Positions 2,003 through 43,644 of a stretch of 64,000 nt of DNA are shown one piece after another. The first letter of the stretch is position 1. Every line of letters begins with the position of its first letter. The notes under the pieces were generated by a model, which searched no databases, was not told the DNA's origin, and saw only the letters and a list, made by a program, of their open reading frames with translations. This DNA is from a virus: positions 1 to 64,000 of IMG/VR virus record IMGVR_UViG_3300030090_003378; one strand, written 5' to 3'. A program made the translations under genes and the position numbers.

Positions 2003-2590
2003 CTATTCAGTATCATCATCTTCGACGAATTGTATATCTTGGCCGGGTTCCACATAAAAATCTTGGTCTTTTGTACGTCTTTCTCTTACTCTATCTCTAA
2101 TACTTGTGCCGCTAAGATTTCTATGACTACCACTTGTGGGCCGTGGGTTAAATGCTTCTTCCCAAGAACCATCATCTGTTGTATCACCCTCTCTTAAAGT
2201 GATAGTAATGCTTTGATTATCTCCTTCCACAAAATCACCTTCTTGTTTAAAATAATCTTTTAACGTATCAAAGAAATAATCAGGACCGCCATGTTTCATA
2301 AAAATACTATGGTTAATTAAAATTGTTCCTTTGATACCATTTGTTTCTACCTCAGGTCTATATGATACTGCATTAAACCCACCCATAGCAGGTATACCTT
2401 TATTCATTAAAGCAATAGGAATTTTTGAAATACCTCTTTTATTGTATGTTTTTTCAACTAATTTATCCAATGCTTGTAGCCATTTTAGATTTTGTGAATT
2501 GGAAAGAATTTCCTGAGCCGCTTCTTTTTTGGCTTGCATCATAGATGCACCGCCTTGAAACTTCAGAATATCAAACCATTGTTCAGTCAA
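2003..2590 (-). CDS. Hypothetical protein with WxxILK leader
   Basis: N-terminus MTEQWFDILK. Confidence 0.6.
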   Translation of the reverse strand: MTEQWFDILKFQGGASMMQAKKEAAQEILSNSQNLKWLQALDKLVEKTYNKRGISKIPIALMNKGIPAMGGFNAVSYRPEVETNGIKGTILINHSIFMKHGGPDYFFDTLKDYFKQEGDFVEGDNQSITITLREGDTTDDGSWEEAFNPRPTSGSHRNLSGTSIRDRVRERRTKDQDFYVEPGQDIQFVEDDDTE

Positions 2591-2615
2591 TTAAATCATT
2601 ACTCCTTTTTCTCTT

Positions 2616-3017
2616 TTATTCAGGTTGCTTAAGCAATATTGCACTATGTTTGTTAAAAGTGTATGTATCATCAACAGTATATCCTTCAGCCTTGTATAAA
2701 TCTCCAATTACCTTAAGAATATATTGTCGATTATTACCAAGTTTTTCTATTACATCAGTTCCAATAGTATAATAGTTATAACCATTTTTATTTCTACCTA
2801 CTTTATCGCCTCCATCATCATTAAAACCAATGAATATAGACCTTCGTTCTGTCGCAGGACGTGAGCGTATATGCGCTGTTAATTTAGGTTCAATTACTGA
2901 TTTCTCATATTCAATAATTGCTTGTTTATATTCTTCATCTCTATTAACCCTAGTATCTAAGGGCATAGGCATTTTCTCTAATTTACTTTTTAATATATCT
3001 TTCCACATTTTAATCAC
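2616..3017 (-). CDS. Hypothetical protein with WxxILK leader
   Basis: N-terminus MWKDILKS. Confidence 0.6.
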   Translation of the reverse strand: MIKMWKDILKSKLEKMPMPLDTRVNRDEEYKQAIIEYEKSVIEPKLTAHIRSRPATERRSIFIGFNDDGGDKVGRNKNGYNYYTIGTDVIEKLGNNRQYILKVIGDLYKAEGYTVDDTYTFNKHSAILLKQPE

Positions 3018-5341: not shown

Positions 5342-5363
5342 TTTATCACCTATTTACATACTG

Positions 5364-6008: not shown

Positions 6009-6222
6009 CTAACCTTTGCATTAATTCTTTCTTTTGTTCTTGCATAATAATTTTTTCTTTGTATTCGCTTGATGATTCTACCCCATAATGAGCATCAATT
6101 AAGTCAAATAAATCTTCATTTTGTTTTCTAACATTATTAGCAATATCTGTTGCCATACCTGCAAGTGCATTTAGGTCATTAATTTTTGATTGAGGAAATG
6201 GATTTTTAATAATTTTTTTCAT
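5989..6222 (-). CDS. Hypothetical protein (neck region)
   Basis: ORF overlaps its neighbours in the operon. Confidence 0.5.
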   Translation of the reverse strand: MKKIIKNPFPQSKINDLNALAGMATDIANNVRKQNEDLFDLIDAHYGVESSSEYKEKIIMQEQKKELMQRLGEIFGG

Positions 6223-6476
6223 TTTAACTTCCCCTCAATTTCATCTATCTGTCTTTTAAGTTCAGCCATTTCTTTTTCTCTTTGTTTACCATACCTTTTG
6301 TAGTCGAAATTTTTTCTTTTTTTAGTATATTGGTGGACACTTTTAATCCTATTATATTCTTTTTGAAGGCGTTCTAACTCTCTCATTAATGGAGTACGTT
6401 TAGCAGACTCTATTATTTCTCTAGCCCTAACGTCATAATCACGTTTAAGAATATTTTCCCAACTCACATTAATCAC
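6219..6476 (-). CDS. Small basic coiled-coil protein with WxxILK leader
   Basis: VSWENILKR near the N-terminus. Confidence 0.55.
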   Translation of the reverse strand: MINVSWENILKRDYDVRAREIIESAKRTPLMRELERLQKEYNRIKSVHQYTKKRKNFDYKRYGKQREKEMAELKRQIDEIEGKLK

Positions 6477-11713: not shown

Positions 11714-13018
11714 TCACTGAAGGTTTGTAATTTTTCCTTGTCCCTTGAAGAATGTACAAACTGTTTCTCCGATAGTCCGATAAAGACCTCGGTTTCCGAG
11801 TTTGTTAACACCGAATGGGTCGCCCGAATCAATTCCACCTTCAAAGTATTCTGTTGGCTTCAATGTAGCAAAGTGCAAATGGTCTGTATCAAGGATAAGA
11901 ATATCGCTCAATCCTGAACCACTACCTGTTGATGGCATCTCTTTGCATGGGATTAGGGGAATGTCGTGATAGGTAGCAACCTTGAATCCGACTTCTCGAC
12001 CCTTTACACCCTTTACACCGTTAGCAGTTGGCATAATTTCTGCACGTCCCATATATCGCTCTTGAGATTGTAGCAATTCGCCCAATGCTTGAATTGTGTC
12101 ATATCCTGTTAGCATAACCTTTGGAGAACCACCGCGAATCTGTAACTCACGTAGAGCAGTATTCAAAGTGTTCAAAGTTAGGTTTCGGCGTGAAGCATAA
12201 GATGTTCCGTAGTCCACATAAGCATCTAACCATGCATCAGTAGCACCTGTAACACGAGTTTGTCCGTATAGAGTAACTAATGTTGCGTTACCTGTCTGTG
12301 TTCCTGCCATTAGCACACCGCCATCCATAGCATCTACTTCAGCATAACTTGAAACGATTTTGTATAGCGAAGTAATGTTGTTACCGATACCTGATACCGA
12401 TGAACCACTATCAATGTGTGACTCAAGAGGCATAAGTAGCATATGATTCATAGCCTCAGCGTGGGAAACACCAATTTCCTCACGGTAAGCCGACATAATA
12501 TCACCAATGCCATCATCAATCTTTGCCATAGCAGCAGCCAACTCGGAAATCTCGAATTGATGTGCAATAGTCTTTGGACTTGCATATAGTGTATCGAATA
12601 CAGGCTTTAGTGGACTCAAAACATCAGCCGCCGCAGTAGTAAATGATGCGTTTTCTGCAACACCACCAATTTGTGCTTCTGTTAGTGAACCATGACCTGT
12701 TCCACCTGTTGTAGACCAAGTATCTCCTGAACCACCTAATGCACGCTCTTTGAGAACTCGCCATCCACTTGAGGACCACGGCTTTTTAGGTAGCATAGCC
12801 AAAGCGTTAATTTCACGGTTTAGCATAGACCATACTTTCTGACCATAGATAAGGTTGTAAAGTGCATTTGCTGAAAATGCGCCTGAATCGTGAGCGGTGT
12901 GAATACCACTCTCAATACCTGCACTCTTCAAAATGCTACTGTTAAAGTTACCATATGTTGCTCTTTCTAAATCTTCGATTGTTCTAATTGTATTAATTCC
13001 TGACATAATAATCACCAT
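11714..13018 (-). CDS. Major capsid protein (HK97 fold)
   Basis: ~430 aa following the prohead protease; capsid-like segments (PKTIAHQFEISE, VATYHDIPLIP, ILILDTDHL, GQGKITNLQ). Confidence 0.85.
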   Translation of the reverse strand: MVIIMSGINTIRTIEDLERATYGNFNSSILKSAGIESGIHTAHDSGAFSANALYNLIYGQKVWSMLNREINALAMLPKKPWSSSGWRVLKERALGGSGDTWSTTGGTGHGSLTEAQIGGVAENASFTTAAADVLSPLKPVFDTLYASPKTIAHQFEISELAAAMAKIDDGIGDIMSAYREEIGVSHAEAMNHMLLMPLESHIDSGSSVSGIGNNITSLYKIVSSYAEVDAMDGGVLMAGTQTGNATLVTLYGQTRVTGATDAWLDAYVDYGTSYASRRNLTLNTLNTALRELQIRGGSPKVMLTGYDTIQALGELLQSQERYMGRAEIMPTANGVKGVKGREVGFKVATYHDIPLIPCKEMPSTGSGSGLSDILILDTDHLHFATLKPTEYFEGGIDSGDPFGVNKLGNRGLYRTIGETVCTFFKGQGKITNLQ

Positions 13019-13040: not shown

Positions 13041-14339
13041 TTAAAGGCCACGGACCTCCCTTGCCAAATCGTTAACTTGTTCCCAAGATAATTCGTGGAG
13101 ATTCTGCATCTTTAGTAGAACATCTTCAGGAACCGCATTTGCAGCGTTAACTGATTCAACCTGCTTTGCGATAACTGTGTTGTTATTCTCAAGAGATTTT
13201 CGTAGTTCTGAAAATTCGTTCTTTAGAGATGCGATTTCTGCGGAAGCATCATACTTTGACTTTGCTACTGCATCAGATTCACTCTTAAGTTCTGCCTGAT
13301 AGCGAGCCTCAAACTCTTGCTTAATAACTTCGTATGCGCGAGCCTCTTCTTGCTCTGCCTTAAACTGTGCATATGCTTTAGCGAGATTCTCATGGCTTAG
13401 GTCAAGAGTGGTAATGCTCTCAGACTTTCGCTTGATATACTCGTTATATTCACTGTCTGCATGGGTAGCAACGGTTCCCTCAATTGAGTTACCTGTTGCA
13501 TTGTGACCATATACAACTGAATCAGCCTTCATTTCATGCATTTCTTTACCATACCCTGCATCTTTGTCAGAATACATGGCATCTTTGTCAGAATACATTG
13601 CTTTGTCGTCTGCGCCATCATCAGCATCTTCGTCTTTTGCGACTTCTGCTTTTGTTGCTTCTTCAGAATCGGTCATTTCCATATCCTCTTCTTCTTCCTT
13701 GCTAATTACACTTACTTGATTTCGGAGTTCTGATACAATATCATTAAACTCGTTCAATGCTTTTTCTATTTCGTCTGTCATTTTATTCACCTTTTTGTCT
13801 TGTTTTACAATGTTGAATTTTGCTTCGGGGTTAATCCCTTCCTCGCATATTGTGATTTCGTGTAGTTCTAATTTGTCTATTTCTTTATATGTGCCAATTT
13901 CGGGGTCATATCTGTTTGCTTTATGTAACGCTTGACCTCCAATACTGAATGAACGTAATTTTCCTCTCCTAATATCTCTTGCTACTTCTTTAGCCTTTTC
14001 AATATCACTTCTCATCTTAATAACTACAAAAAATCCTGTATCATCTACACCTGTTTTTAATACATTACCTTTAGAATCTCTCCAATTATCTACTACTTCT
14101 CCTACTTGAACATTGGAATGGGTAATCATAACGTTTTTGTAATCCCCCTTCATGAATTTTGATGATGCATCCCGTAGTGCTTCTAATGTGATTAAGTCAT
14201 TCTGTTTATCTACTACATCTACTGAAGCATAACCGGCAATAACCAAATCATTTGATTTTCCTTTTAGAATAACTAATTCGCTTCCGGCCCCTAAATGCTT
14301 ACCCATCATGCTTGGCTCGATAGCAATTGCGCTACTCAT
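13041..14339 (-). CDS. Prohead (maturation) protease fused to a C-terminal scaffold
   Basis: IAGYASVDVVDKQND, ITHSN, SFSIGG and LHEITIC motifs of caudoviral prohead serine proteases; acidic coiled-coil tail. Confidence 0.88.
   Translation of the reverse strand: MSSAIAIEPSMMGKHLGAGSELVILKGKSNDLVIAGYASVDVVDKQNDLITLEALRDASSKFMKGDYKNVMITHSNVQVGEVVDNWRDSKGNVLKTGVDDTGFFVVIKMRSDIEKAKEVARDIRRGKLRSFSIGGQALHKANRYDPEIGTYKEIDKLELHEITICEEGINPEAKFNIVKQDKKVNKMTDEIEKALNEFNDIVSELRNQVSVISKEEEEDMEMTDSEEATKAEVAKDEDADDGADDKAMYSDKDAMYSDKDAGYGKEMHEMKADSVVYGHNATGNSIEGTVATHADSEYNEYIKRKSESITTLDLSHENLAKAYAQFKAEQEEARAYEVIKQEFEARYQAELKSESDAVAKSKYDASAEIASLKNEFSELRKSLENNNTVIAKQVESVNAANAVPEDVLLKMQNLHELSWEQVNDLAREVRGL
13558..13598. 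repeat. Tandem duplication with 21-bp period (AMYSDKD x2) in the scaffold
   Basis: gcatctttgtcagaatacat at 13558-13577 and again at 13579-13598. Confidence 0.85.
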
Positions 14340-18000: not shown

Positions 18001-18239
18001 ATATCACCTGTTAATTTTCTTACTAAGTCATCTACTTCGGTCCATTCCATTTTAGCCAAAGTGTCTGCATTTGGAACACCGTTTGTATTTGTGTTAATTG
18101 ATGGGGTCGGAGAATTTGTAACCACCAACCCTGATTTCATCAACACATTATCTGCGCTAAATACTGTGTATTCTAATTGCTTTACTCTATCTACTAATTC
18201 TTTTAATAGTAACGTTAATTCATTGTTTTCTTCTGTCAT
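17997..18239 (-). CDS. Hypothetical protein
   Basis: C-terminus (LAKMEWTEVDDLVRKL) resembles the end of the scaffold (LHELSWEQVNDLAREV). Confidence 0.55.
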   Translation of the reverse strand: MTEENNELTLLLKELVDRVKQLEYTVFSADNVLMKSGLVVTNSPTPSINTNTNGVPNADTLAKMEWTEVDDLVRKLTGDI

Positions 18240-26925: not shown

Positions 26926-27781
26926 ATAGCCGTTTAATAAAATTTCTATATTCTTCAGTATTTATCTCAGGGTGGGTTCCATATCTTGCTAGAGCCTGTT
27001 TTAAATTTTGGGGAAAGTTTTTCTTCACAAACCTATTTTTACCTTTGGCCCAAGACACTTCCATTCTTAACAGTTTTTCTCTATCCCCTTTAGTTTTAGC
27101 CCATTTTTCTACATATGATATTCTACTTCTAATTAATGCTAATCTTTCTGTATCTTTGTATGTCGTAACAGGAAAAATACTACTACCCTTCCCCTGATAT
27201 TGCCTCCATGTTTCGTTATCAACTTCTATGTTTAAATTGACATGGGTAAGCATATCTTTATACGCATCATAAATTGATTCAGGGTATTCTGAAATAAATG
27301 CCGCATATTCAAGGTGGTGCATATCAAACTCACCGGGATTTTCTCCGAAAAACTTTTTGTCTTCTGCTACATGATGTGCTGAATGTCCTGCTTCGTGCAT
27401 TACTACTCTCTTAAATGCTTTAGCCGTTAATTCTTCTAATAACGGGGTGGGCAAATATTTTTCATTTCCTTTTGCATCATATTCGCGTTTGATTTGTCCA
27501 TTTTCATCCTGTTCAAAAAACAAATATTTACCTTTTCTTTTAGAAAAAATGCCCATACCCTTTTCTTTTAATTTATTTCTGACCAACTGAAAAACTTTAT
27601 TAGGATTTATCTTAATCGTGCCTTGTTTAAGTTCCAATACTACATTATCATCTTCATCTCTTTTTAACTCATAAGACAAACCTAATTGGCGAGAAAATTG
27701 TGGTGGAATATACTGCCCAATTGGTCCCATACCAAAGTCCCAAACTACTTCAGTTGCTTTTAAAATATTTTGCCAACTCAT
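26912..27781 (-). CDS. WxxILK-leader protein with HExxH zinc-metallopeptidase motif
   Basis: MSWQNILKA; VVMHEAGHSAH followed by a downstream E. Confidence 0.55.
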   Translation of the reverse strand: MSWQNILKATEVVWDFGMGPIGQYIPPQFSRQLGLSYELKRDEDDNVVLELKQGTIKINPNKVFQLVRNKLKEKGMGIFSKRKGKYLFFEQDENGQIKREYDAKGNEKYLPTPLLEELTAKAFKRVVMHEAGHSAHHVAEDKKFFGENPGEFDMHHLEYAAFISEYPESIYDAYKDMLTHVNLNIEVDNETWRQYQGKGSSIFPVTTYKDTERLALIRSRISYVEKWAKTKGDREKLLRMEVSWAKGKNRFVKKNFPQNLKQALARYGTHPEINTEEYRNFIKRLFGGK

Positions 27782-28023
27782 TATCCCACTTCAATTTTAA
27801 CTCTATGATACCCTTCTCTTTCACCAACACTTAGTATTTTGAATGCTCTCCTTTGGTCCAATAATAATCCCTTAATATCTTTAATATAATTTCTTGCATT
27901 ATCGTCATTCATAAAATCAACAATTATAACATTATTTTTAAATGTGCCTAACCCGCCATATTTTTTTGCTAATTCAGCGTAGTCTTTAGGTAGTGCTAAT
28001 TTTAGAATACTTTCCCAAGTCAT
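27781..28023 (-). CDS. Small WxxILK-leader protein
   Basis: MTWESILK. Confidence 0.55.
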   Translation of the reverse strand: MTWESILKLALPKDYAELAKKYGGLGTFKNNVIIVDFMNDDNARNYIKDIKGLLLDQRRAFKILSVGEREGYHRVKIEVG

Positions 28024-30614: not shown

Positions 30615-32890
30615 TCTTCCTCATCCCCCTCGATTAAAATATCCATATTAATTAGTTTTTCTTTTAGAGATTGTGATTGCCCCTTTAGTTTAGCAGTTCC
30701 TGTAATTTCATCTGTTGATATTTTTTCCAATATGTCATTAAAGTGAGAATTGATTAACTTGGGTATTTTTCCTAATGCGCTGTCCAATTTATTTTCCATA
30801 TCCATTAAATTATCTTTTATCCCCATGCAAGAATCGTATTGTTGAGATAAGTTAGGGTGTAGTTCCAAAATTTGTTGTTTTCCATTTAAGCCCTTTTTAT
30901 TTGTTTTCTCTTCAACCATCCAAGCCACGTTTCTTTTTTTGTTTTTTTCACTAATCATACCTTTTTTCTTTGATAAGGTCATAACAGTTTTATCCATATT
31001 TACTATGAATTCATTCATCATTTTTTGCATAGAGTTACTGTATCTTTGCATTGTGCCTGTTCCTGAAAATGCTTGAATAATAGTTAGTAACGCTTTGAAT
31101 GATTGGGGAAATGTATTACTATCAACATTTTGGAAAATTCGACCTGTGGGCCAATAACCTGTCCAACCTGATGTTGAAGGAACCCATTTATTAATTTGTC
31201 TATCCCATTCTGTGCCTTCTAATTCCCAATATTTGAAATACATTGTCACAAAAATTCCTTTTGCAAATCTTGTATCTAGTAAATTAAACGCCTCTTCAAT
31301 TTCTTTTGATTTTAATACGCCATCAGTAATTCCGAATAAAGCATAATCAGGTCTTTCTTCTAAATCCATCTTGCTGTAAATATTTCTAATTTTATCACGT
31401 ATTGCAGGGGCTTGTGCTTCCGATGCTTCTCTAAGTTCTTCCATTAATTCCTTTGCATCTGCATCAGCGTTGGCTTTTTGTCTAACATAATGTTGCCATG
31501 CCTTTCTAAACATTGTATCTCCTGTGTTCAATTCCTTTCTAATTTTATCGAACAGTGTTTCAACTGCATCAAAGTGGTTTTCTAATCTTTTTTCCTGTGG
31601 GCCAGTTAGTGAATTAGGGGCTTCTCTCCTTTTAGTCATTAGTTTGTTAAATGTATTTTCACCCAAAAGTTTATCCACGTCTAAGAACTCAAACACCGTT
31701 TTGTCTTTATTCTTACGCATTTCATTTTTAATATATGTGTAAATAAAATTAGATTGTTGTCCACGTTTTTCTGTTCTGTGAGTAATACCTTTTCTAATTT
31801 CATCAATACGCATTACTAACTCGCTTACTTTATTTTCATCGAGTGTAATAATTTGATGTAAAATTCTTAAGCCTCTATCTTTAAAATGCATTAAAGGTGT
31901 ATCTTTCAATGCGTTGGCTTTATGTAATGAATTCATAAAAATAGTAAATTCGCGGTAAGGTAAATCTTGAATTTTATTATAGGCTGAAGGCGAAACTCTT
32001 GTAGGAATAGATTCATCTTTTCCGTAAATAACACGACCACCTCTCACCTTTCTTTTCTTTTCCTTGTATTTGGTTTGCTTCTCTTGTTCAGCCGCTCTTT
32101 TTCTTTGCTTCTTGGTTTTCTTTTTACCTTCTTTGAAAGCCTCTTCCAATTTTGGTGATTGGGCGGCTTGACCTGTTTCTAATTCTACGCGAGTTTTAAC
32201 AGGTCTTTCTGATACATCTTCTGTTTTTCCTGCTGTAATATCAAATTGGTTTCTAATATCTTCAAATATTCCCGTAGGAATTCTTTTATCAATTGAAAAT
32301 TTGTTTAGTCCTCTTGTAAACTCTTCTTTTGTATCAGGTGAGGGTTTCCAATTTTGAAATAGATTTTCCGGCCTTCTTTTCTTACCACCTTTTGCATCTA
32401 ATGTTTTTAGTCTTGTCAAAAATTGACCCAATACTGTTAATTTAGCAAGAGTCGGATTACCAGCAAAGTCTTGATACAATGTATTAGTTGTATCTTGAAC
32501 CCATTCAACCCATGATTCATCCCCTCTTGGGAATGCGTTTTTGAATGCTTTATTTTTGAATTTAAGTGAAGCAATATTTTCAGGCATAGGTTCCTTTAAT
32601 AAATTCTTATGCTCTATAAGTTTCTTAATCATGGCATTAATTTTAGCGGGCTTGTAGCCCACCCTGCCTCTAAGTTCATTTGTAGTAGTAATTTGTTTGT
32701 AAAAATCACTTTGTTTATTACGCATTTCAGAAATCAATTGTTCTAATTTATTGTGCGCCGTGTTAATCTCATTGTTTGAAAATTGCTCTAAGTTTAACTT
32801 ATCAGGAATATTATCATCCTTGACAGCCTGTTTCCAATTAGGCATCCCTGCCTTTAAGAGCGATTGCCAATTCAAATGAATCACACTCAT
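30611..32890 (-). CDS. Large basic WxxLLK-leader protein (759 aa)
   Basis: LNWQSLLKAG near the N-terminus. Confidence 0.6.
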   Translation of the reverse strand: MSVIHLNWQSLLKAGMPNWKQAVKDDNIPDKLNLEQFSNNEINTAHNKLEQLISEMRNKQSDFYKQITTTNELRGRVGYKPAKINAMIKKLIEHKNLLKEPMPENIASLKFKNKAFKNAFPRGDESWVEWVQDTTNTLYQDFAGNPTLAKLTVLGQFLTRLKTLDAKGGKKRRPENLFQNWKPSPDTKEEFTRGLNKFSIDKRIPTGIFEDIRNQFDITAGKTEDVSERPVKTRVELETGQAAQSPKLEEAFKEGKKKTKKQRKRAAEQEKQTKYKEKKRKVRGGRVIYGKDESIPTRVSPSAYNKIQDLPYREFTIFMNSLHKANALKDTPLMHFKDRGLRILHQIITLDENKVSELVMRIDEIRKGITHRTEKRGQQSNFIYTYIKNEMRKNKDKTVFEFLDVDKLLGENTFNKLMTKRREAPNSLTGPQEKRLENHFDAVETLFDKIRKELNTGDTMFRKAWQHYVRQKANADADAKELMEELREASEAQAPAIRDKIRNIYSKMDLEERPDYALFGITDGVLKSKEIEEAFNLLDTRFAKGIFVTMYFKYWELEGTEWDRQINKWVPSTSGWTGYWPTGRIFQNVDSNTFPQSFKALLTIIQAFSGTGTMQRYSNSMQKMMNEFIVNMDKTVMTLSKKKGMISEKNKKRNVAWMVEEKTNKKGLNGKQQILELHPNLSQQYDSCMGIKDNLMDMENKLDSALGKIPKLINSHFNDILEKISTDEITGTAKLKGQSQSLKEKLINMDILIEGDEEE

Positions 32891-33111
32891 AGAGATTGAA
32901 TCATTACTACTACTGCTACTGCTACGGGTATTGCAAGAAGAATGTATTTCTTGTATAGTTTAACCTTGGATAAAATCAATTGAGCCTTCGACTCACTAAT
33001 TAATCCCAAGTCCTCTAATTCATCAATAACATCCTCTACAATATCATCTGCTTTCTCTACTTTGCCTTTGAGTTCTTGTTCTTTATCTTTTTTTGTTGCC
33101 ATTTTAATCAC
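32887..33111 (-). CDS. Small protein with C-terminal transmembrane helix
   Basis: YILLAIPVAVAVVVMIQSL. Confidence 0.55.
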   Translation of the reverse strand: MIKMATKKDKEQELKGKVEKADDIVEDVIDELEDLGLISESKAQLILSKVKLYKKYILLAIPVAVAVVVMIQSL

Positions 33112-34141
33112 CTAAATTATGTGGGGATTTTACCCCATGTTTTTGTTCATACATAGCCCTTCTTGCTCTTTCAATTTGAGATTGTTGGCCGGGAGAACGC
33201 TCACCTTGTATATTACGTTGTAATTGTTTTAGGTATTTTAATCTTTTCTCCACCGCTTTAATTTCAACATCTATTTCTTCTTCAGTCATAATGACTTCTT
33301 TATCAGGTCTATACCCTGCTTCTTCCATACGTTCCTCGAATGTTGTTTTAGTAATGTTAAAGTTTTTAGTTTCTTTCCAAGTCATATTAAATCGCCTCAC
33401 TTGTTATGTTGATAATCTTGTTGTGTAGTTCCTGTTCGTGAAAGGTGCATTCTTACTACGGCCAATATTTGCATAAGAGTATTTTTAGGGTTAGTGCTTG
33501 ATTCAATTGCTTGTCTAACTTGCGCTAACACTTGCTCATCTGTAACTTCGTATTTTTTAATTGTGTTTTCCCAATTCATTTTAATCACTGTTCCTCATCA
33601 TATTCAAGTAGGGCGCGTTCTCCTTCTAGTGCTTCATCATAAGATAAATAATGGCGTGATTCACGAGGGTTAATATCTCTCACATCAGTTCCAAATCTAT
33701 CTTTGTCTAATTTTTGTTCTGTGTAAATACCTTGATTACCCAACTTAGTCATTAGATTTAGAATCATACCCTTATGTCCTACCTTTTCAGGAAAATCATA
33801 TTCCTTAATGTCGCCCTCTTCATCCATTCTTTCTGTTTGTAAATGTTTTCGCCAAGGTTTCATTTCATCGTGAATATTACCCTTACTAATTTTTTCTTCC
33901 CACATTATTCTTCACCCCTTAATAAATCTTCAACGTATTCTCGCAGTTTATCAATATTCTCTTCGGCTTCTGCTACTGCGTCTACAACTTTTGCGGGTAA
34001 TGATGCCCCAAGATTCATTGTTTCTAAACTCTCCTGATATTCTAATACTAATTGGATTGCGTGTTCTATTTGCCTAAATAGACTATCTCCTTCTTCTTCG
34101 CCAAATTCATCAGCAATTTTAATTATGTCAGCCCAATTCAT
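33104..34141 (-). CDS. Run of four small leader-bearing ORFs (33104-33400, 33397-33588, 33585-33905, 33905-34141)
   Basis: MTWKETK, MNWENTIK, MWEEKISK, MNWADIIK; overlapping or adjacent stop/start codons. Confidence 0.55.
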
Positions 34142-34563
34142 TGTTCTCGCCTCATTTGATTTTCTTTAGATGTTTTATCATCATCAATTGGGCCACCCTT
34201 AGCCCATGTGTAGCAGGTTCTATCTTTATGACATTTAAAATCATGCATCCAACAGTAACCTAAATCTCCTTCAAGTGGCATACATTCACTCATTCTTGGA
34301 GATATGTCAAATGCGACACAATTAGAACATCTTGATTTCTTAGCAACTTCAGGTGATGTGTTCCAATGTTCTGCTGCATCTACCCAATATTGGTCATCTG
34401 ATAAATTAAGGGGGCCATATCGAATATCTTCATCTTTAATTGCAGCATCTCTATTTTTAGTATTAACTTTTAAATCTTGAGTAGCGCGTGGGCAACTCAA
34501 TTCCTTTAGTAAAATTTCCCAACTCATTGTATCACTTCGGTTTATGTGTGTAAATATCTCCAT
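34138..34563 (-). CDS. Cys/His-rich leader-bearing protein (likely start MSWEILLK at ~34527)
   Basis: CPRATQD...RCSNCVAFD...GYCWMHDFKCHKDRTC, a putative metal-binding domain. Confidence 0.6.
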   Translation of the reverse strand: MEIFTHINRSDTMSWEILLKELSCPRATQDLKVNTKNRDAAIKDEDIRYGPLNLSDDQYWVDAAEHWNTSPEVAKKSRCSNCVAFDISPRMSECMPLEGDLGYCWMHDFKCHKDRTCYTWAKGGPIDDDKTSKENQMRREQ

Positions 34564-34735
34564 CCTTATGCATAAAGATTTTACCTTCCTTTTCTAACTT
34601 AGATAAGACTCTTTTAATTTCAGATTCTTTTCCGAATTGCTTTAGGTTTTTCATGCCTAATGCCCCACCTTCTTTTTTAATTTCAGCAAGTATTTTTTCT
34701 TCAATATCTGCCTTTAGTATATTTTCCCAACTCAT
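34532..34735 (-). CDS. Winged-helix-like small protein with leader
   Basis: MSWENILKA; EIKRVLSKLEKEGKIF. Confidence 0.55.
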   Translation of the reverse strand: MSWENILKADIEEKILAEIKKEGGALGMKNLKQFGKESEIKRVLSKLEKEGKIFMHKDGDIYTHKPK

Positions 34736-35394: not shown

Positions 35395-36475
35395 TTCGTA
35401 ATATTCCCTCCCATGATATAGGTTGCATTTTTTGTAAGTTAATTCCCGGAGGTGCTTGCTCAGGCGTTGTTCCGGGTTTTTGGAAAGTGCTTAATTCATC
35501 CCCCATAACTTCTCTAATTAGTTTGTTAATAGCCACATTTGATTTAGGCCATTTGAGTTTGTATTGTTTTAAATTTTTACTTCCGGGCATATCCTTAAAC
35601 CCAATCATCATTTCTTCAAGAATAGCAATATCATTTGGTGTTGCTGTGAAAACCTTGTTACTGAAAGCGTCATTTAATCTTGTAGGCATAGGTGTAGTTC
35701 TGCGCCCTTTAGGGTAAATATTTGGGTCATTTAAAATCTCAAGAACGTGCTGTTTCATGGTGCTAATATCCTTTAATCTTCCGGGGGTCCGCTTAACATT
35801 AAACAAGGCAACGGTGCCACGCTTTTGTTTTACTTTTTCTCCCTTTTTACCAATGCTTTTCTTTGCAGTTTTAACAACCTTCATAATGCCATCTTTATTG
35901 TTAGCAATACATTCTAACAGGGGTGGTTTAGCCTTACCTTCGTTTTTATTCCACCATTTATCATCTGCCGCTACAATTTTATGGTTTTCACCATTTACTT
36001 CATTATCCCACTCAAGGTATTTGTTATATGCTGTTGTGCGATAGTGACCATGAACTTCTGCCCTAACTATTTCGGGCTTTTTTGGGTCATCGGTTTCAGC
36101 AAAATATACAACAGTTCTGAACGGGATGTTTTGCGGGTTCTTTTTTGGGTCTTTTAAAACTGCTTCCATTTCATCTACTGCTTTATTAAATAGTTCAATT
36201 TCTTTAGCAGTAATAGTTCCTGATAATAGATTTTGAATTGCTTTGACTAACTCACCTAAACCATCGAAAGAAGCAGTTCCACTTCTTGATTGTTCGGGTT
36301 CACCGTGACGTTCTGCTTGACCTAATACTGTATCGGGTGTTTTACCTTTTCTATTACCATGACCACCAACGATTCCCCAATTAGCACCGTCAGACCATTT
36401 ATTAACCCATTCTTCTAATCTTTGTTGAACACCACGTTCATTCCACTCTTGGTCAAAACTTATTACATCACTCAT
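35384..36475 (-). CDS. Hypothetical protein with a C-terminal copy of the leader motif
   Basis: Ends LQKMQPISWEGILRNES. Confidence 0.55.
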   Translation of the reverse strand: MSDVISFDQEWNERGVQQRLEEWVNKWSDGANWGIVGGHGNRKGKTPDTVLGQAERHGEPEQSRSGTASFDGLGELVKAIQNLLSGTITAKEIELFNKAVDEMEAVLKDPKKNPQNIPFRTVVYFAETDDPKKPEIVRAEVHGHYRTTAYNKYLEWDNEVNGENHKIVAADDKWWNKNEGKAKPPLLECIANNKDGIMKVVKTAKKSIGKKGEKVKQKRGTVALFNVKRTPGRLKDISTMKQHVLEILNDPNIYPKGRRTTPMPTRLNDAFSNKVFTATPNDIAILEEMMIGFKDMPGSKNLKQYKLKWPKSNVAINKLIREVMGDELSTFQKPGTTPEQAPPGINLQKMQPISWEGILRNES

Positions 36476-38068
36476 TCATTACACCTACACTTTGTTTTTT
36501 TATCGTCGCATTTTGGGCAACTACCATAAGTTATATTATGTATATTAGGTTGAAAGCCGGTATTAGTAGTTAAACCTATCCCTGCTTCTTTTTTTGCTTC
36601 ATCATACTGTTGTTCTCTATCTTCAATATTGTGCTGTTCATCTTTAATCACTTCCCTTAGTATATCCATTGTTGATAATGGAACGCCTAATTCCTTTCCT
36701 TTTCTAATGAATTCTTTTACTGCGATTTCCCAATTAGTAATATCTTTATCTGTTGTCTTTTTTAAATAATCTTCCCAAGTCATTCATCTTCCTCCTTTAT
36801 ACGTTGTTCTAATCTTGTAAATTTTGGTTCTCTTTTAATACCCATTTCTTTAGCCCGTTCTCTTTTTCCTCTTTCTACTGCTAAGGTTTTTTTCCAACTG
36901 TGTAAGTTTTGTTTTCTTTTTTGTTCTGCTTCCTTTTCCTCTTTCTCTTTCTTTTCTCGCTCTATTTCACTCAAAAGTTTTCTTGATGCTGTCCTATATC
37001 CCCAACTATCCCATTTGGGATTACCATAAAGTTTTACATAATCTTCCCAACTATTAATTTCAGGTTCTGCTGTCCAAATCATAGTTGCTCTAACATATGC
37101 CTCATTCCCGTAAGGTTGGAAACCTCTAACAAAAAATTTCTTGACTAAATTTTGACTAACTAAGTTATCTAATATTACCTGTGCGAATTTCCAAGTAAGT
37201 GCATTATAATCCTGTATTGCTCTAGTCATTCTTAGTGGGTCAGACCCGTAATCTATTACTACAATACTACCATCATCTCCCCGAACTTGAACAGGTTGCT
37301 TGAAATCACTCATCGCCTCTCTTTGTTCTTCTTCTATATCTTTGATTTCTTGTTCACTTATTAATGTAAAAAACTCATCTCTATAACCTAATATGTCTAT
37401 TAATTCTTGATTTCCCTTCTTAATTATTTGACCTACTTTGCCACTTCCAATATCATCATTACCTTGTATTATCTTAACTTTTTTAAGGTAATTTAACACA
37501 TCGTTTTGAGATTTGCTTAAATTCTCACGCTTAGTTTGTTCGTATTCTTGTCTTGCTTCTTCAACAATTTCAGGTGCATAACGTTCTGCCTCCTCTTGAG
37601 GGGTGACTTTTAATATATTTTCCCAAGTCATCTGTTATACCCCATGTATCTTTCTATATCTGCTGTGCTATAAAGCCAAAATGGAATTCCTTCTTTCAAT
37701 CCTCTGTCGAATAATTCTAATTGTTCTATTAATTTATCAGGTGCATCACTTTCTACTGCTAAATCATACCACACATCAAAGTATTCCTCATATTCTTTGG
37801 TTGGGGATTCATCCCAAATACCTATCATTGCTAATGACTCTTGACGCATTTTATCTACATAAATGTTTAGGTCATCTAAATTAGTAAACTCGATAGGTTT
37901 ATCTACATCAATAATTGAACCTGCAAAAGCGTGTCTAAAATCTATGGGCATTTTATCTAAATTTCTAATATGTGTTGTAACATCTTGAATTAAACCCATA
38001 AAATATTGTCGCCATTCACCGTCAGGGACTTCTGTGGGAATTTCTCTTTTAATAATATTAAACCACAT
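36472..38068 (-). CDS. Three leader-bearing ORFs (36472-36783, 36780-37631, 37628-38068)
   Basis: MTWEDYLK, MTWENILK, MWFNIIK. Confidence 0.55.
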
Positions 38069-38072
38069 AATA

Positions 38073-38468
38073 TCACTTCTTTTTTGGCACTAATGTTTTC
38101 AACGGTCGCTTTAGGTGCATTCTCTTCAAATCATCTTCTGTTTTTGATATTCGTCGCATAGCCTCAACACGTTCTTCTTGTTCTGCATTCCATCTATCGA
38201 AGAATCGAGAAATAGCCATGTAGGATGGACCGGAAAGAATACCTAATACTGCAATATATGATTCAATATCTTCTCTAACTTGGTCGTTAACAAATGCTTG
38301 ATTAATTAACTGATATGATAAAATAAAGAAAATGAAAACCATAGGTAGTGAAACTACTGCAACAAAAATATCATTGAGTGTAATTCTTACATCCCAATTG
38401 CCGTTATCCTTCATGCTTACCAATCCCTGCAAGCCATACATCTTGCTGAATAATCTCCCCTTTTGCAA
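38073..38468 (-). CDS. Two-TM membrane protein (holin-like candidate; likely start MKDNG at ~38414)
   Basis: Two hydrophobic helices and a charged C-terminal tail. Confidence 0.4.
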   Translation of the reverse strand: MQKGRLFSKMYGLQGLVSMKDNGNWDVRITLNDIFVAVVSLPMVFIFFILSYQLINQAFVNDQVREDIESYIAVLGILSGPSYMAISRFFDRWNAEQEERVEAMRRISKTEDDLKRMHLKRPLKTLVPKKK

Positions 38469-38683
38469 GTTTTACAATTATGTCTTGCTCTAAAAGATTT
38501 CTTACGTTTTGTATTGCCTTTCTTACCTGTTACTGAAACACCTCTTTGGCCCCAATGAACTCTTTTATAACCACCTTTTCCATTAGGAACACAAGCCATC
38601 CATTTCTTACCTTTACGGTCAGAACTTGTTTTACCTGTGCGCTTAGTGCATTGACCCGCTTTTAATAAATCAAACCAACTCAT
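38417..38683 (-). CDS. Very basic Cys-containing leader protein
   Basis: MSWFDLLKA; RKKSFRARHNC...CRDW. Confidence 0.6.
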   Translation of the reverse strand: MSWFDLLKAGQCTKRTGKTSSDRKGKKWMACVPNGKGGYKRVHWGQRGVSVTGKKGNTKRKKSFRARHNCKTCKRGDYSARCMACRDW

Positions 38684-38753: not shown

Positions 38754-38954
38754 TTAATTATCCCCCCTGCTATCTCCTTCAAATTTCTCATAACCTTTTT
38801 CATCTTGAATATCTGCTAAATCATTTGAAAGTGATGCTATTACTGATTGTAGTTTATCAAACTCTGCACCACCAAATACTTTTGCCGCTAACAACCTGTT
38901 AAATTTTTGTGTTGCTATGCGTATTGCCTGTTCTACCCTCTCCTGTTTATCCAC
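38754..38954 (-). CDS. Hypothetical protein
   Basis: ORF adjacent to the upstream gene. Confidence 0.45.
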   Translation of the reverse strand: MDKQERVEQAIRIATQKFNRLLAAKVFGGAEFDKLQSVIASLSNDLADIQDEKGYEKFEGDSRGDN

Positions 38955-40099: not shown

Positions 40100-40100
40100 A

Positions 40101-40995
40101 TTAATCTCTCCAATAATATAATGTTTTCACGTTGCCGGTGGTTCCCACTGGATTTCTTTGCACATGTATATTAGGATGATTTTGTAAAAATTTTCTTACT
40201 CTTTTATTTGACCAATTTCCTAAATCTAAACTTGTTAGGGCTTTTAATTTAAGACCTGAAGGATTTCTTTTCAATACTTCAATAATTCTGTCTTCCATTT
40301 TTGGCTTTGGGACGTGTGGTTTTCTAACCCAATCATCTTTTTTAGCCTTAAGTGTATCTTCCCAACTCATTTAACTTCCCCCTTTAATTTACTAATAACA
40401 TCTTCTAAATCCATAATAACTTCTCTCATTTGATTTCTATACCTAATGCCTGTTTGGTTATCTAAACCTGCCATCTCAAATTTATCTATTAGTGTGGTAA
40501 ATTGCTTACCCAAGTGAATAACTTTTTGATTGTATTCGCGCATATTATGTTCTGATTGTAGTTCAGGGCGATTTTCCATTAAATCATCTACTACCGCTTC
40601 ATCTTCAAAACCACGCTTAACTCTTACTTTGGTTTTGTGAGGAACTTCTTGTAAAGTATCTGCCCATCCCATAATATAACCACCGTCTATTTTCAATATA
40701 AAGGTTACTATTTTTTCTTTCCCCATTTTTTACCTTTACCTTTTTGTCCACAGGCAGAAGGTGTAGGTCTACAAGAAGGATATTTAGAGCGTTTATCTCC
40801 TTTAGAACGACCACAGGCACTACAAGTTTTACGTCCTGTTTTCTTATCTTTACGACAAGTATTACAATCTACCCAGCCGCCTTTACTTCCTTTAGCCCCT
40901 TTACGACCAAACCAATCTCTAAGACTTGTTTCAGAAGAAGGCTTTGCAGTTAATTTGCGTTTTTTTAATACTTCTTCCCAAGTCATAATAATCAC
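40101..40995 (-). CDS. Three leader-bearing ORFs (40101-40370 wHTH-like; 40367-~40672; 40708-40995 basic Cys-rich)
   Basis: MSWEDTLK, MGWADTLQ, MTWEEVLK. Confidence 0.55.
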
Positions 40996-41153
40996 TTCTT
41001 AGATTTGCCGTAATTAGCACAACCCTTTTTTCTACATTGTACTACTCTACCTGAAGCATATGCTGAAGGCCAAACTTTTGCTGTTGCTTTGACCTTTCTA
41101 GCACAACAGTCTAGTTTCTTTTTTTTCTTCTTCTTCAAAATATCTTCCCACAT
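40992..41153 (-). CDS. 53-aa basic leader protein missed by the ORF track
   Basis: Translates as MWEDILK, a Lys run, then LDCCARKVKATAKVWPSAYASGRVVQCRKKGCANYGKSKK*; GGTGA RBS upstream. Confidence 0.7.
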   Translation of the reverse strand: MWEDILKKKKKKKLDCCARKVKATAKVWPSAYASGRVVQCRKKGCANYGKSKK

Positions 41154-41157
41154 AGTA

Positions 41158-41577
41158 TCACCTGTAAATATACATTGGTAGTTCTGCTAAATCTGCATAT
41201 ACGCCTTCAGACATAATATCGGAAACTTGAGTGTAACAATACACGGGTTTTCCGCCTTGTTTATTCACTTGTTCTCTTAGTATATTAATGTCAGTATCAT
41301 TCATTGGATTTACAAGTGCTACTTTAGGTTTATCGTATAAGTGATTATTGCGGTCTGCAAGTAATTGAGAATAATGACCTTCTCCTCTGTATTCAGGTGC
41401 AATATATGTATTTCCTACAAAGTAAAAATCTCCCATATCTGCGAATGAAGTGTAGCCTACAATATCGGGATATATTGCACCTACAAAATAAGTAACAGGT
41501 TCAACAATAGCGGGATAACCTTTGTCTGTTGGGTTAAGAGTGTCTGTAAAGTTAGTGTCTGAGGAAAAAGTAATCAT
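41158..41577 (-). CDS. GNAT-family acetyltransferase-like protein
   Basis: YIAPEYRGEGHYSQLL matches the acetyl-CoA-binding motif A. Confidence 0.55.
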   Translation of the reverse strand: MITFSSDTNFTDTLNPTDKGYPAIVEPVTYFVGAIYPDIVGYTSFADMGDFYFVGNTYIAPEYRGEGHYSQLLADRNNHLYDKPKVALVNPMNDTDINILREQVNKQGGKPVYCYTQVSDIMSEGVYADLAELPMYIYR

Positions 41578-41578
41578 A

Positions 41579-43644
41579 TCAAACCACCTCTTTGTCGCAC
41601 TCCTTCCATTCCTCGTATATTTTTCTCCACTCTAAATATTCAGGATTAATTTTCATACCTTTAGGTGGTTTTTCATGTGAAATATCATGCATTCGCTTGA
41701 CTATACTGAGCAATTCACCGCAATCGTACTGTTCCAGAGGTGGGATAGCAATTTCTATTCCTTTTGCTTCTTCCTCTCTTCCTTCTTTTTCATATCTCCT
41801 TTGTACATTTCCCATTAATTCTATTACATGATTTCTTGCCACTTCACAACAACTATCTGTAACATCCATTTCACCTGCTAACTCAAAATCTATCACTTTA
41901 GAATTAGGGGCTTGTAATTCTCTATCAGGTTTCCTCTCCATCATGGGTTCAGCACCAAGTCTTTTAAGAATATCAAACCAAGTCATCGTTGACCACCTTC
42001 AATTATGTCTAACATTTCTCTAAGGTATTTATGAATTTTAAGTGCTTTACGTCTATGCCGTGGATGTTCATGTAACTTAGATGCCACTTCCATTGAATTT
42101 AATAATGACTGGCGTAAATCTTTATTTATTTGTTTTGCTTCTTCTACTTCTTCAGGGGTTCTTTGACCTACAACATATCTGTCTAACACTTCTTTAATAT
42201 AGCCAATTCTAATATGTTGTTGTAGTGTGCCTACTGATAATCTTTTAAATTCCCCTCTATTGTATTGGTCCCAAACATAATCCAATAAATGTTCCCTGTC
42301 AATTTCAGGATTAAGAATCTTGACGCCCCAATCATATTTTGAAGCAGTTTCTCTATTCATTCTATCTTTATCATCATATTTTACTTTAGGTCTACCTACG
42401 GTATAATCTTCACCACGGGCTTGAAGCCAAAAATCAGCATTGGGCATATTTGATTTAACGTAAAAATTATCTGTTTTGAAAGGCGCTTTCAATGTATTCT
42501 CCCAATTCATCTCCTTCCTCTCCCATCTCCCCAATTATATGAACCTCTAACTAAATTTGGCAACCACTTATTAGCGTTGTTAATTATCAGGTCTATTGCA
42601 GGGGCCACATTAACTACGACCTGTTCCCAATTAACTTCATTTAAGTCCTCTTTGGGCATAGCAGCAAAATCAACATTTGTTTTAATTTCTTGAAATGTTA
42701 TTTGTTTAAAGGCTTCAGGTAAACTGCCCCAAAATTCATTAAGAGCATCCTTCTTAATTTCATATCTCTTTACTTCACCTGTTTGTTTATCGTGAATTAC
42801 GTGCCACGCTCCTAAATGCATAAGTAAATCTTGAATGTGTTGCACAAATTTACTGTCCTTTCTAAGAGCAGTAGAAATGTATCGTTCCAAGTCGAATTTT
42901 AGAATTTTTTTCCAAGTCATGTTAAATCCCTCCGTTGTTTATCTTCAGGGGATATTCCTGCTTTTTCTAATATTAGGTTAATTTGGGCAAGAATAAATTC
43001 AGGAGTCATAAATGACACAATATTTTCATCATCAAATGTTTCAATTGCACGTTCAATTAAATCAGCCCATTGTAAAACGTCTTTTTCTGCTTGTCCTCTT
43101 AACTTTGGTAAGAAATCAAATCTAATTCTTCTTTTGGCTTGTATTAAATCATCCTTAGACAACGTTCCTTCAGGAAACCATCTTTTTGTAGAATCTCCAA
43201 CATTAGGAAATTCGTATTTTAGAATTTTTTTCCAAGACATTATTTCACCCACTGTAATTTAACAGCCCCTGTTGCTTCATCTTGACCTACCAAATTATAT
43301 TGAATTCCTGCTATCTGTCTAAGTGCATCATTAGCATTATTAAGGATTGTTGTTATCATTATTTGATATTGATTACCTAAATCATCACTTAATTGCTGTA
43401 ACTCTTTTTTATCTTCAAGATTTTCTGAACCCTCATCCCACAACTTCTGCATAATTTCGTTTAAGTCAGTAATTTGGGTATTAAAGTGTTTTTCTATCTG
43501 CCAAATCGGAAAACCCCTTTTATATTCTACAATTTTTTCCCAATCTAAATCTTTAAGCCATTTTTTGTGTTTATCAGACCAAGAAAATATATCTGCATTC
43601 CAAATAAAGCGAGTATTTTCTTTTTTCAGAATTTTTTCCCACAT
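41579..43644 (-). CDS. Five leader-bearing ORFs (41579-41986, 41983-~42510, 42507-42920, 42917-~43240, 43240-43644)
   Basis: MTWFDILK, MNWENTLK, MTWKKILK, MSWKKILK, MWEKILK. Confidence 0.6.

Follow-up and report, generated by a model that had tools for sequence, protein, structure and literature searches.

The T4 protein Alt carries a capsid-targeting sequence (CTS), which is removed by the gp21 prohead protease. In Alt and the internal proteins IPI-III this short N-terminal peptide is the only common part of diverse, fast-evolving proteins, and the T4 internal proteins follow the same pattern of hypervariability (PMC3012670) as the viral genes described here, about one-fifth of their virus's genes, which open with a shared eight-residue peptide ending in Ile-Leu-Lys (the tag). 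The last residues of the T4 CTS form the motif at which the head protease cuts, and that protease acts on capsid and scaffold as well; here, the [IL]-L-K of the tag recurs at candidate sites in the capsid protein and the protease-scaffold protein. The differences are equally clear, as the protease matches Peptidase_S78 (the HK97 type) and not the T4 family, P1 would be Lys and not Glu, the host is archaeal and there is no homology. With such a protease, and with a tag whose sequence we take to be unlike that of the T4 CTS, the system is an analogue of the T4 system and not a member of it. The scale also differs, with more than 20 tagged genes and two diverged tag forms here against approximately 5-8 genes in T4.

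In the giant phages phiKZ and SPN3US (PMC5694885, PMC7411985, PMC10052503), one prohead protease processes many propeptide-bearing head and ejection proteins at a short consensus, much as proposed here; those propeptides are long and differ from one another except at the cleavage consensus, whereas the tag is a near-identical 8-12-residue peptide at the extreme N-terminus. In HK97, the S78 protease gp4 cleaves at K103/S104, within an unstructured part of the capsid protein (PMC10275583), which bears out the statement in an earlier, sequence-only reading of this DNA that the HK97 protease cleaves after Lys. The protease studied here belongs to the same Pfam family, with Lys likewise proposed at P1 and a candidate capsid site in a linker that is predicted to be flexible and precedes the N-arm. 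HK97 loses a fused scaffold of 103 residues and has no tagged cargo, whereas the magrovirus scaffold forms one protein with the protease, and the capsid protein would lose only approximately 31 residues.

Two further systems share single features with this one. The cargo-loading peptides of encapsulins are short terminal peptides that anchor unrelated cargo to the inside surface of an HK97-fold shell; they are usually C-terminal, uncleaved, non-viral and without a protease, in contrast to the N-terminal, viral tag. Polyvalent or MuF-type phage effectors are variable anti-host enzymes that travel in the head, with genes close to those for portal and terminase, and they are fused to a structural MuF or portal-associated domain, whereas the proteins described here bear a short tag.

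Magroviruses are tailed viruses, among the most abundant in the surface ocean, for which Marine Group II archaea are the assigned hosts. The virus studied here, whose genome is complete at 94,082 bp with a terminal repeat of approximately 257 bp, looks like a group B magrovirus. It encodes PolB, RFC, RNR and a replicative ligase, with another ligase inside the head module, and among cultured viruses HCTV-1 and HVTV-1 have the capsid proteins nearest to its own. Described magroviruses have genomes of approximately 100 kb with terminal redundancy, a halovirus-type head module, a large archaeal-type replication module, a second ATP-dependent ligase in the structural module and, in group B, RNR (PMC5434244). 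No published description of the tag was found, and the magrovirus papers examined make no mention of it.

A shared N-terminal peptide on the virion-gene strand

A six-frame scan that took start-codon context into account identified 22 minus-strand ORFs between positions 2616 and 43644 of the window (the whole 64,000-nucleotide stretch analysed) whose products begin with M-[STN]-W-x-x-[ILTVY]-[IL]-K or M-W-x-x-[IV]-[IL]-K (Table 1). All 22 have a Shine-Dalgarno-like GGAGG or GGTGAT 6-12 nt 5' of the start, and four further ORFs carry offset or degenerate copies, in good agreement with the approximately 24 leader-bearing proteins of the sequence-only reading. Counting the single plus-strand copy, the genome holds 23 tags, compared with a mean of 0.22 and a maximum of 2 in 200 triplet shuffles. 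The tag is a real feature and not a product of chance. Its restriction to the late/virion arm, also claimed from the first inspection, holds. The plus-strand copy (MVWENIMK, 49684-49947) belongs to an ORF whose reality is doubtful; a scan of the rest of the genome, bases 64-94 kb, revealed no tags. Across 45 related loci, the tag lies on the TerL/head strand in 138 cases and on the other in 2.

Once the tags are trimmed, all-against-all BLASTP shows no paralogy among the tagged proteins. The bodies behind the Lys are unrelated, as had been claimed, and the comparison with the T4 CTS is apt in this respect, with a short peptide common to otherwise unrelated proteins. The tagged genes are mostly ORFans or hypervariable, and the untagged genes in their midst are conserved. 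Several relationships show that the tag is portable between unrelated proteins. The DUF5754 domain joined directly to the tag in the 88-aa protein is 90% identical to the C-terminus of a 268-aa tagged protein of the relative G001, so that one domain occurs as tag plus domain here and as the end of a longer tagged protein there. The 103-aa protein, including its tag, is homologous to an internal M-K-W-T-E-Y-L-K-K in longer tagged proteins, near residue 436 of 509 in G001 and near residue 383 of 454 in G002, and the N-terminus of the 92-aa protein aligns to an internal K-S-W-E-D-I-L-Q in tagged proteins of 273-279 aa from relatives. Proteins of G001-G003 that share the C-terminal ~110 aa of the 1062-aa protein have full tags where ours has a degenerate start.

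A second form of the tag, M-x-P-h-D-x-A-W-x-h-L-K, is found in distant relatives of approximately 90-100 kb. It is 12 residues long and has a different 5' sequence, yet it retains W...h-L-K. Its genomic position is as in the first form (29 copies on the plus strand, 1 on the minus strand), and in this distant lineage tagged genes lie just 3' of the capsid gene. Each of two such genomes, G006 and G007, whose CheckV completeness is 100% and 90%, contains 5-10 tagged genes.

Table 1. Tagged genes and head-protein features in the window. A slash marks the proposed cut after Lys; a start codon other than ATG is given in brackets.
Feature	Length (aa)	N-terminus or motif	Remarks	Position	Strand
Tagged ORF	134	MWEKILK/		43240..43644	-
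Tagged ORF	107	MSWKKILK/		42917..43240	-
Tagged ORF	137	MTWKKILK/		42507..42920	-
Tagged ORF	175	MNWENTLK/		41983..42510	-
Tagged ORF	135	MTWFDILK/		41579..41986	-
Tagged ORF	53	MWEDILK/	Then Lys run and Cys-rich basic body (weak DUF5872 match)	40992..41153	-
Tagged ORF	92	MTWEEVLK/		40708..40986	-
Tagged ORF	89	MSWEDTLK/		40101..40370	-
Tagged ORF	88	MSWFDLLK/	Joined directly to DUF5754 domain	38417..38683	-
Tagged ORF	146	MWFNIIK/		37628..38068	-
Tagged ORF	283	MTWENILK/		36780..37631	-
Tagged ORF	103	MTWEDYLK/		36472..36783	-
Tagged ORF	67	MSWENILK/	Weak winged-helix matches; tagged orthologues in four relatives	34532..34735	-
Tagged ORF	129	MSWEILLK/		34138..34527	-
Tagged ORF	78	MNWADIIK/		33905..34141	-
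Tagged ORF	60	MNWENTIK/		33397..33579	-
Tagged ORF	754	(TTG)NWQSLLK/		30611..32875	-
Tagged ORF	80	MTWESILK/	SUKH-like match under Pfam cut-off	27781..28023	-
Tagged ORF	289	MSWQNILK/		26912..27781	-
Tagged ORF	219	MWWDVLK/	ORFan, immediately upstream of large terminase	26251..26910	-
Tagged ORF	82	(GTG)SWENILK/	Within tail module	6219..6467	-
Tagged ORF	130	MWKDILK/	Adjoins tube-like gene	2616..3008	-
Offset tag	195	(TTG)TEQ-WFDILK/	Start L-T-E-Q-WFDILK	2003..2590	-
Degenerate tag		MTWKETK	Inner ATG of ORF 33104-33400	33104..33385	-
Degenerate tag	106	MWEEKISK		33585..33905	-
Degenerate start	1062	MKSETLIK	Between portal and head-module ligase	18236..21424	-
Major capsid protein	434		Pfam SU10_MCP above cut-off	11714..13018	-
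Candidate maturation site		N-S-S-I-L-K/S	Capsid residues 26-31	12926..12943	-
Prohead protease			Peptidase_S78 (residues 30-181) fused to acidic linker and helical scaffold-like C-terminal half	13041..14339	-
Candidate self-cleavage junction		F-N-I-V-K/QDK	Protease residues 175-179, end of protease domain	13803..13817	-
Conserved protease site		V-I-L-K/G	Protease residues 23-26, inside variable N-terminus	14262..14273	-
Scaffold C-terminal tail		L-S-W-E-Q-V-N-D-L		13065..13091	-

Peptide and nucleotide conservation of the tag

The codons for Ile, Leu, Lys, Glu, Asp and Asn in the tag match genome-wide usage, with all six Leu codons in use and Ile encoded by ATA 27 times and by ATT 33 times, and the amino acids are retained even where the nucleotides diverge. 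The full-length homologue of the 754-aa protein in the related locus L004, at 24% identity, still retains the tag (MTWTALLK). Because synonymous codons are free to vary, selection acts on the peptide. The sequence-only reading had named conservation at the nucleotide level alone as one refuting outcome; synonymous positions were found to vary like those of the rest of the genome, and a DNA or RNA signal is rejected for all but codon 2. At that codon, Ser is encoded by AGT in 25 of 32 cases, compared with 26% genome-wide (p=6e-9), so the pattern is partly fixed at the nucleotide level. The start lies in an ATGA that overlaps or abuts the upstream stop in 16 of the 22 tagged genes, and these overlaps largely account for the S/T/N at residue 2, which falls outside the peptide signal.

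These same features bear on the reading of the tag as an N-terminal expression or stability element without any addressing role, acting in initiation after ATGA-coupled restarts or on how long late proteins persist in the archaeal host. The frequent ATGA starts and the biased Ser codon are what such an element might look like, but we consider it improbable given that Trp, Ile-Leu and Lys are retained while their synonymous codons vary, that the tag is missing from the conserved core late genes of that strand, which are often ATGA-coupled too, and that the second form keeps W...h-L-K with another length and 5' sequence. More improbable still is a shared 5' sequence that serves as a DNA-level site for cassette shuffling, providing microhomology for gene gain and loss, with the peptide incidental. 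Tagged genes do turn over fast and domains do move among tagged proteins, but the free synonymous positions, the amino acids kept despite nucleotide differences and the peptide retained at 24% identity all argue the other way. Recombination through the leader may occur, yet it would not explain why the leader is conserved.

A role for the tag in the virus's ubiquitin-like system was also considered, either through its Lys as an acceptor or through a LIR-type W-x-x-I that binds the ubiquitin-like protein (Ubl). The Ubl, a ThiF-type E1 and a JAB protein are core genes of G0-G003, and the tag does combine an invariant Lys with a W-x-x-[ILV] core. The tag-bearing G006 and G007, however, have no match to Ubl, E1 or JAB by tblastn at E<=0.1, while PolB and RFC are easily found in them; marginal short matches lie beyond this threshold (Ubl in G006, E=0.43; JAB in G007, E=0.12 and 0.25). 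With these genes unmatched at that threshold in the two tag-bearing genomes, we rejected the Ubl-linked readings, whose probability we place lowest of all.

Lysine sites in the capsid protein and the protease-scaffold protein

The major capsid protein scores 30.7 bits against Pfam PF17236 (SU10_MCP; cut-off 24.1), and its AlphaFold2 (AF2) model (pTM 0.70) is in keeping with an HK97-like fold. A PDB sequence search returned no matches, and the sole match of a profile search was the cyanophage capsid protein 6j3q, whose chain begins past the Lys site. K31, the Lys of the candidate maturation site, is nearly invariant across the family, and in each of the two tag-bearing lineages it closes an [IL]-[LM]-K. 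The AF2 model places it in a linker with pLDDT <50, between a helix at residues 14-22 and the start of the fold near residue 55. The protease scores 42.2 bits against PF04586 (Peptidase_S78; cut-off 21), and from HK97 only we infer Lys at P1 for the magrovirus enzyme. The consensus at its protease/scaffold junction is F-x-I-L-K/E-D. When 110,436 internal positions were scanned with a matrix derived from the tags minus their Trp, the G003 junction, FDILK/E, shared the top score. The V-I-L-K/G site may simply be the first beta-strand of the protease fold.

Approximately 0.6 copies of [IL]-L-K are expected by chance per 434 aa of such an AT-rich proteome, and with a motif this short and common the link between tag and head sites depends on conservation and not on the match itself. 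Judged in this way, the Lys signature that the sequence-only reading had listed across the head proteins survives in part: ILK/S in the capsid protein and VILK/G and NIVK/Q in the protease are present and conserved in relatives, whereas LRK/S, VAK/S and most of the ligase sites may be no more than chance. Tag-bearing lineages all have h-L-K at the capsid site, and lineages with other capsid P2 residues (IQK, ITK, IAK and others) have no tags at all. However, the untagged lineage L198/L214 has h-L-K in the protease as well, so there is no clean co-variation of tag and head sites. HVTV-1, the nearest cultured relative, has a homologous K/AD site, GGMSK/ADNLL, in its capsid protein and no tag.

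The C-terminal tail of the scaffold half resembles the tag (M-S-W-x-x-[IV]), and each of the seven magrovirus genomes that we compared keeps it as M-S-W-x-[ED]-V-H-x-L. It is identical across both tag forms, and thus it does not co-vary with the tag.

If the likeness to the head sites were due to chance, the tag could be a docking motif for some other common partner, such as a hub protein of virus or host, a chaperone or a compartment built by the virus, unrelated to capsid and protease. W-x-x-h is a typical amphipathic anchor, the residue after the Lys (P1') is unconstrained (A, K, R, I, E, S or Y), and most of the window's tagged genes lie upstream of the terminase, beyond the recognised head module. 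Set against this are the strict restriction to the virion-gene arm over more than 45 loci, the correspondence of the invariant terminal Lys with P1 of an HK97-type protease, and the tagged genes placed directly behind the capsid gene in the more distant relatives and within the head module of G003, where seven of nine lie in the portal-protease interval or just past the capsid gene. Moreover, no candidate partner tracks the tag; a GroEL-like gene of G001 and G002, assigned from N-terminal sequence only, has no counterpart in G0. We regard docking to another partner as rather unlikely.

A possible route into the head

On balance, the tag is probably a portable address label, an analogue of the T4 CTS of independent origin, that loads variable cargo into the head, and it most likely also marks a cut site of the head protease. 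It is plausible that its W-x-x-[IV] mimics the conserved C-terminal tail of the protease-scaffold protein (M-S-W-x-E-V-H-x-L), resulting in the docking of the tagged protein within the assembling procapsid. The S78 prohead protease would then cut after the Lys of [IL]-L-K in the tag, just as it would process two head proteins: the capsid protein, within its flexible N-terminal linker, and the protease-scaffold protein itself, where protease and scaffold meet. The released cargo, variable and genome-specific, would remain in the head beside the DNA and presumably enter the host along with it. Docking, cleavage, packaging and delivery are steps that we infer, and the overall interpretation offered by the sequence-only reading, a modular label for effectors injected into an archaeal host, is partly supported. 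More tentatively, and with slightly less than even confidence, magroviruses may possess a programmable packaging system in which an 8-12-residue scaffold-tail mimic is clipped at Lys and 10-25 private, fast-turnover effectors per genome are delivered together with the DNA.

If the address-label reading is true, one short, readily recognised peptide would annotate hundreds of otherwise dark ORFan families of globally abundant archaeal viruses as virion cargo, and would point to the genes by which magroviruses fight their uncultured hosts. It would also follow that tailed viruses evolved tag-based cargo loading at least two times, using unrelated proteases. Under the more tentative view, these would be the first effectors of an archaeal virus to be delivered by its virion, and no tailed virus would have a larger known set of tagged cargo. 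The address-label reading would also mean that a minimal tag of eight residues with Lys at P1 could load foreign proteins into HK97-fold shells.

Twenty or more cargo species, some of them 750-1000 aa long, would be a heavy load for one head, which counts against loading. The tagged genes found among tail genes (n=3) and the unconstrained P1' likewise count against the address-label reading.

Sequence comparisons give weak leads to the functions of the tagged proteins, which may include ART-like, SUKH-like, DUF5754 and winged-helix types. The ART-like lead, a possible parallel with T4 Alt, comes from the Atlas (0.84-0.87) for the 219-aa protein, with ART-PolyVal among the leads; this protein has no homologues among 5.8 billion clusters, and AF2 without an alignment gave a pLDDT of 30 and no usable fold. 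As a group, the tagged proteins are more basic than the untagged ones, with a median pI of 8.0 compared with 5.6 (p=0.01).

A common leader on unrelated late proteins

Several features of the genome match the published description of magroviruses, and of group B in particular: its size, its redundant ends, a head module that includes a second ligase, RNR and its capsid relatives (PMC5434244). The window covers the first 64 kb of the record, whose first 25 bases reappear at 93,825 of 94,082 bp, a terminal repeat of ~257 bp. Head and tail genes run on the minus strand from ~45.6 kb down to base 1, and the plus strand encodes RNR, a ThiF-type E1, a replicative ligase, RFC and PolB. Homologues of the capsid protein occur in very large numbers in Tara and other marine data, with HCTV-1 and HVTV-1 the nearest cultured capsid relatives.

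Coordinates of genes and sites considered in the text
Feature	Position	Strand	Remarks
Tube-like protein	3014-5341	-
SU10-type capsid protein	11714-13018	-
S78 prohead protease fused to scaffold-like half	13041-14339	-
Protease-scaffold C-terminal tail	13065-13091	-	L-S-W-E-Q-V-N-D-L; M-S-W-x-E-V-H-x-L in relatives
Ligase-domain protein (head module)	14382-17144	-
F-D-I-L-K/Y in ligase-domain protein	15885-15899	-	residues 416-420
1062-aa protein	18236-21424	-	portal-to-protease slot; tag degenerate
Portal	21653-23296	-
Large terminase	24830-26266	-
Untagged genes within tagged block	28020-30614, 34732-35394, 35384-36475, 38954-40099	-	kept across relatives
Small, very basic, Cys-containing tagged proteins	38417-38683, 40992-41153	-	DUF5754 (E=3e-8), weakly DUF5872
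ORF with tag-like start	49684-49947	+	MVWENIMK; may not be a gene
Ubl	52035-52241	+	ends GG-NY
ThiF-type E1	59167-59739	+
JAB-like gene	60590-61066	+	assigned from sequence reading; no family by Pfam

Twenty-two minus-strand ORFs (2616-43644), each with a Shine-Dalgarno-like motif upstream, start M-[STN]-W-x-x-[ILTVY]-[IL]-K or M-W-x-x-[IV]-[IL]-K, and 4 further ORFs carry offset or degenerate copies. In 200 triplet shuffles, tags numbered 0.22 on average and 2 at most. The shared leader described in the sequence-only reading is confirmed, and no BLAST similarity was found among tagged proteins once the tag was trimmed. Between 26 and 44 kb, the tag is present on 20 of the 31 genes called; a scan of the 30 kb of genome that lie beyond the window found no tag.

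The untagged genes inside this block, among them those for an 864-aa protein and for a Cys-rich HTH protein of 220 aa, are the ones kept across relatives and may represent core late functions. The 1062-aa protein matches tagged proteins of relatives (181-807 aa) only in its last ~110 residues; ahead of these, its sequence has been replaced. The sole plus-strand ORF with a tag-like start belongs to a group of short, poorly supported ORFs in the divergent control region.

Peptide versus nucleic-acid signal

Codon choice in 68 tags, drawn from four complete genomes, agrees with that of the genomes at large for Ile, Leu, Lys, Glu, Asp, Asn, Gln and Thr, Ile and Leu departing mildly at most; all six Leu codons are used, and Ile is split between ATA (27) and ATT (33). 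Purely nucleotide-level conservation, which the initial reading had named as the mark of a DNA or RNA signal, was not seen in these codons, and W, I-L and K are, judging by codon choice, under selection as amino acids. This pattern of conserved amino acids with free codons is left unexplained by a DNA cassette signal.

Residue 2 behaves differently from the other tag positions, with AGT accounting for 25 of its 32 Ser codons (p=6e-9). In 16 of the 22 tagged genes of the window the start is ATGA, overlapping or abutting an upstream TGA (for example at 34141, 36783, 37631, 40370, 41986, 42510 and 42920), so that codon 2 must begin with A (AGT, ACT, AAT). The S/T/N preference is in large part a by-product of this stop/start overlap; the M-(S/T/N)-W-x-x-(I/L)-L-K motif originally read is a peptide signal at W, I-L and K but largely not at residue 2. 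An expression or stability element accounts for codon 2, but leaves W, I-L and K unaccounted for, and with them the absence of the tag from conserved late genes.

Distribution, second form and cargo

Restriction to the late/virion strand was borne out in 45 IMG/VR loci with terminases 57-96% identical, where 138 tags share the strand of the terminase and 2 lie opposite it. The complete relatives G001, G002 and G003 have 17, 19 and 9 tagged genes, 7 of the 9 in G003 lying between portal and protease or directly after the capsid gene. Tagged genes are nearly all private to single genomes, whereas core genes, including the untagged ones between them, are conserved. For one tagged protein, of 219 aa, a search of 5.8 billion clusters gave no homologue; where homologues of tagged proteins are found they are likewise tagged, and a 754-aa protein, 24% identical to its counterpart in the related locus L004, shares little with it besides fold-length alignment and the tag. 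Domains also move: an 88-aa protein consists of the tag joined straight to a DUF5754 domain, and a 90%-identical copy of that domain closes a tagged protein of 268 aa in G001. In two further small tagged proteins, the N-terminal sequence together with the tag lines up with segments inside longer tagged ones (M-K-W-T-E-Y-L-K-K and K-S-W-E-D-I-L-Q).

Three distant relatives of ~90-100 kb (G006, G007, G009; GC 46-52%; terminase about 36% and capsid protein about 40% identical to those of the window) lack this form and instead each have 4-10 genes that begin M-x-P-h-[DN]-x-A-W-x-h-L-K, also upstream of the terminase or just past the capsid gene; over 80 loci, 29 copies are on the plus strand and 1 on the minus. 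A recurrent N-terminal motif is absent from HVTV-1 and from smaller, non-marine relatives whose capsid proteins belong to the same family. Given this distribution, the tag seems confined to magroviruses, with W...h-L-K as its constant part. The tag pattern occurs in at least 113 IMG/VR stretches; among the matches listed, many are in 85-97-kb contigs, several with 2-5 copies. We found no mention of the tag in the magrovirus papers examined.

The same distant genomes speak against a tag belonging to a Ubl-linked system. The Ubl, E1 and JAB-like genes are kept in 4 of 4 genomes of the window's lineage, but G006 and G007 are tagged and gave no match to them by tblastn at E<=0.1, with marginal short matches above, although PolB and RFC were readily found; this explanation fails.

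The cargo offers weak leads to function. DUF5754 scores above cut-off, DUF5872, SUKH and winged-helix matches fall below it, and the ART lead consists of Atlas scores of 0.84-0.87 only. DUF5754 and DUF5872 are families of unknown function, present in other large DNA viruses.

Head proteins and a candidate capsid address

The I-L-K site noted near the capsid N-terminus ends in a conserved Lys. This Lys, 25-35 residues from the N-terminus, is nearly invariant in 120 close and about 100 distant homologues, occurs also in HVTV-1, and lies between a conserved T-I-x-D-L-E-x-x-Y-G helix and [AST]-D-[AD]-P; both tag-bearing lineages have [IL]-[LM]-K. In an AF2 model (pTM 0.70), K31 falls in a segment of pLDDT <50 that separates helix 14-22 from the fold start at ~residue 55. 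The HK97 protease, the type for S78, cuts its capsid protein at K103/S104 within an unstructured stretch (PMC10275583).

Of the protease sites, the end-of-domain junction is kept as F-x-I-[LV]-K/[QE]-[DE], beyond which lies an acidic linker, but V-I-L-K near the N-terminus aligns with the first fold strand in relatives and may be structural. When 110,436 internal positions were scanned with a matrix derived from tags without Trp, the G003 protease junction ranked joint first and the capsid sites about 30th-47th. Untagged relatives retain Lys at both sites, with different P2/P3 residues before it. The signature in the ligase-domain protein ties for the best internal match, but falls within the adenylation domain (Pfam residues 322-506) and so may be chance rather than a processing site.

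The scaffold tail, M/L-S-W-x-[ED]-[VI]-[HN]-x-L in 7 of 7 genomes, is kept across both magrovirus lineages and resembles the tag's M-S-W-x-x-[IV]; one untagged sediment lineage (L198) has a related P-W-x-x-V-H. The tagged set is somewhat more basic, its median pI being 8.0 against 5.6 for untagged proteins (p=0.01). However, [IL]-L-K is a short, common word, the residue following the tag Lys (P1') is unconstrained, h-L-K is found in the protease of one untagged lineage and the scaffold tail is alike in both tag forms, so the tag does not co-vary cleanly with the head proteins.

It is plausible from these sequence comparisons that the tag is a capsid-loading and maturation signal; the tagged proteins would then be cleaved, packaged and delivered. 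Docking to some non-capsid partner is a less likely alternative. Among known systems, the T4 capsid-targeting sequence, carried by diverse internal proteins (PMC3012670), comes closest. Protease family, P1 residue and tag sequence all differ, and the magrovirus tag is therefore an analogue, not a relative; as a parallel, the earlier comparison with T4 is apt. A 513-aa GroEL-like gene without counterpart in the window's genome, assigned by eye from its N-terminal sequence, is present in the related loci L046 (G001:9158-10699) and L053 (G002:51972-53513).
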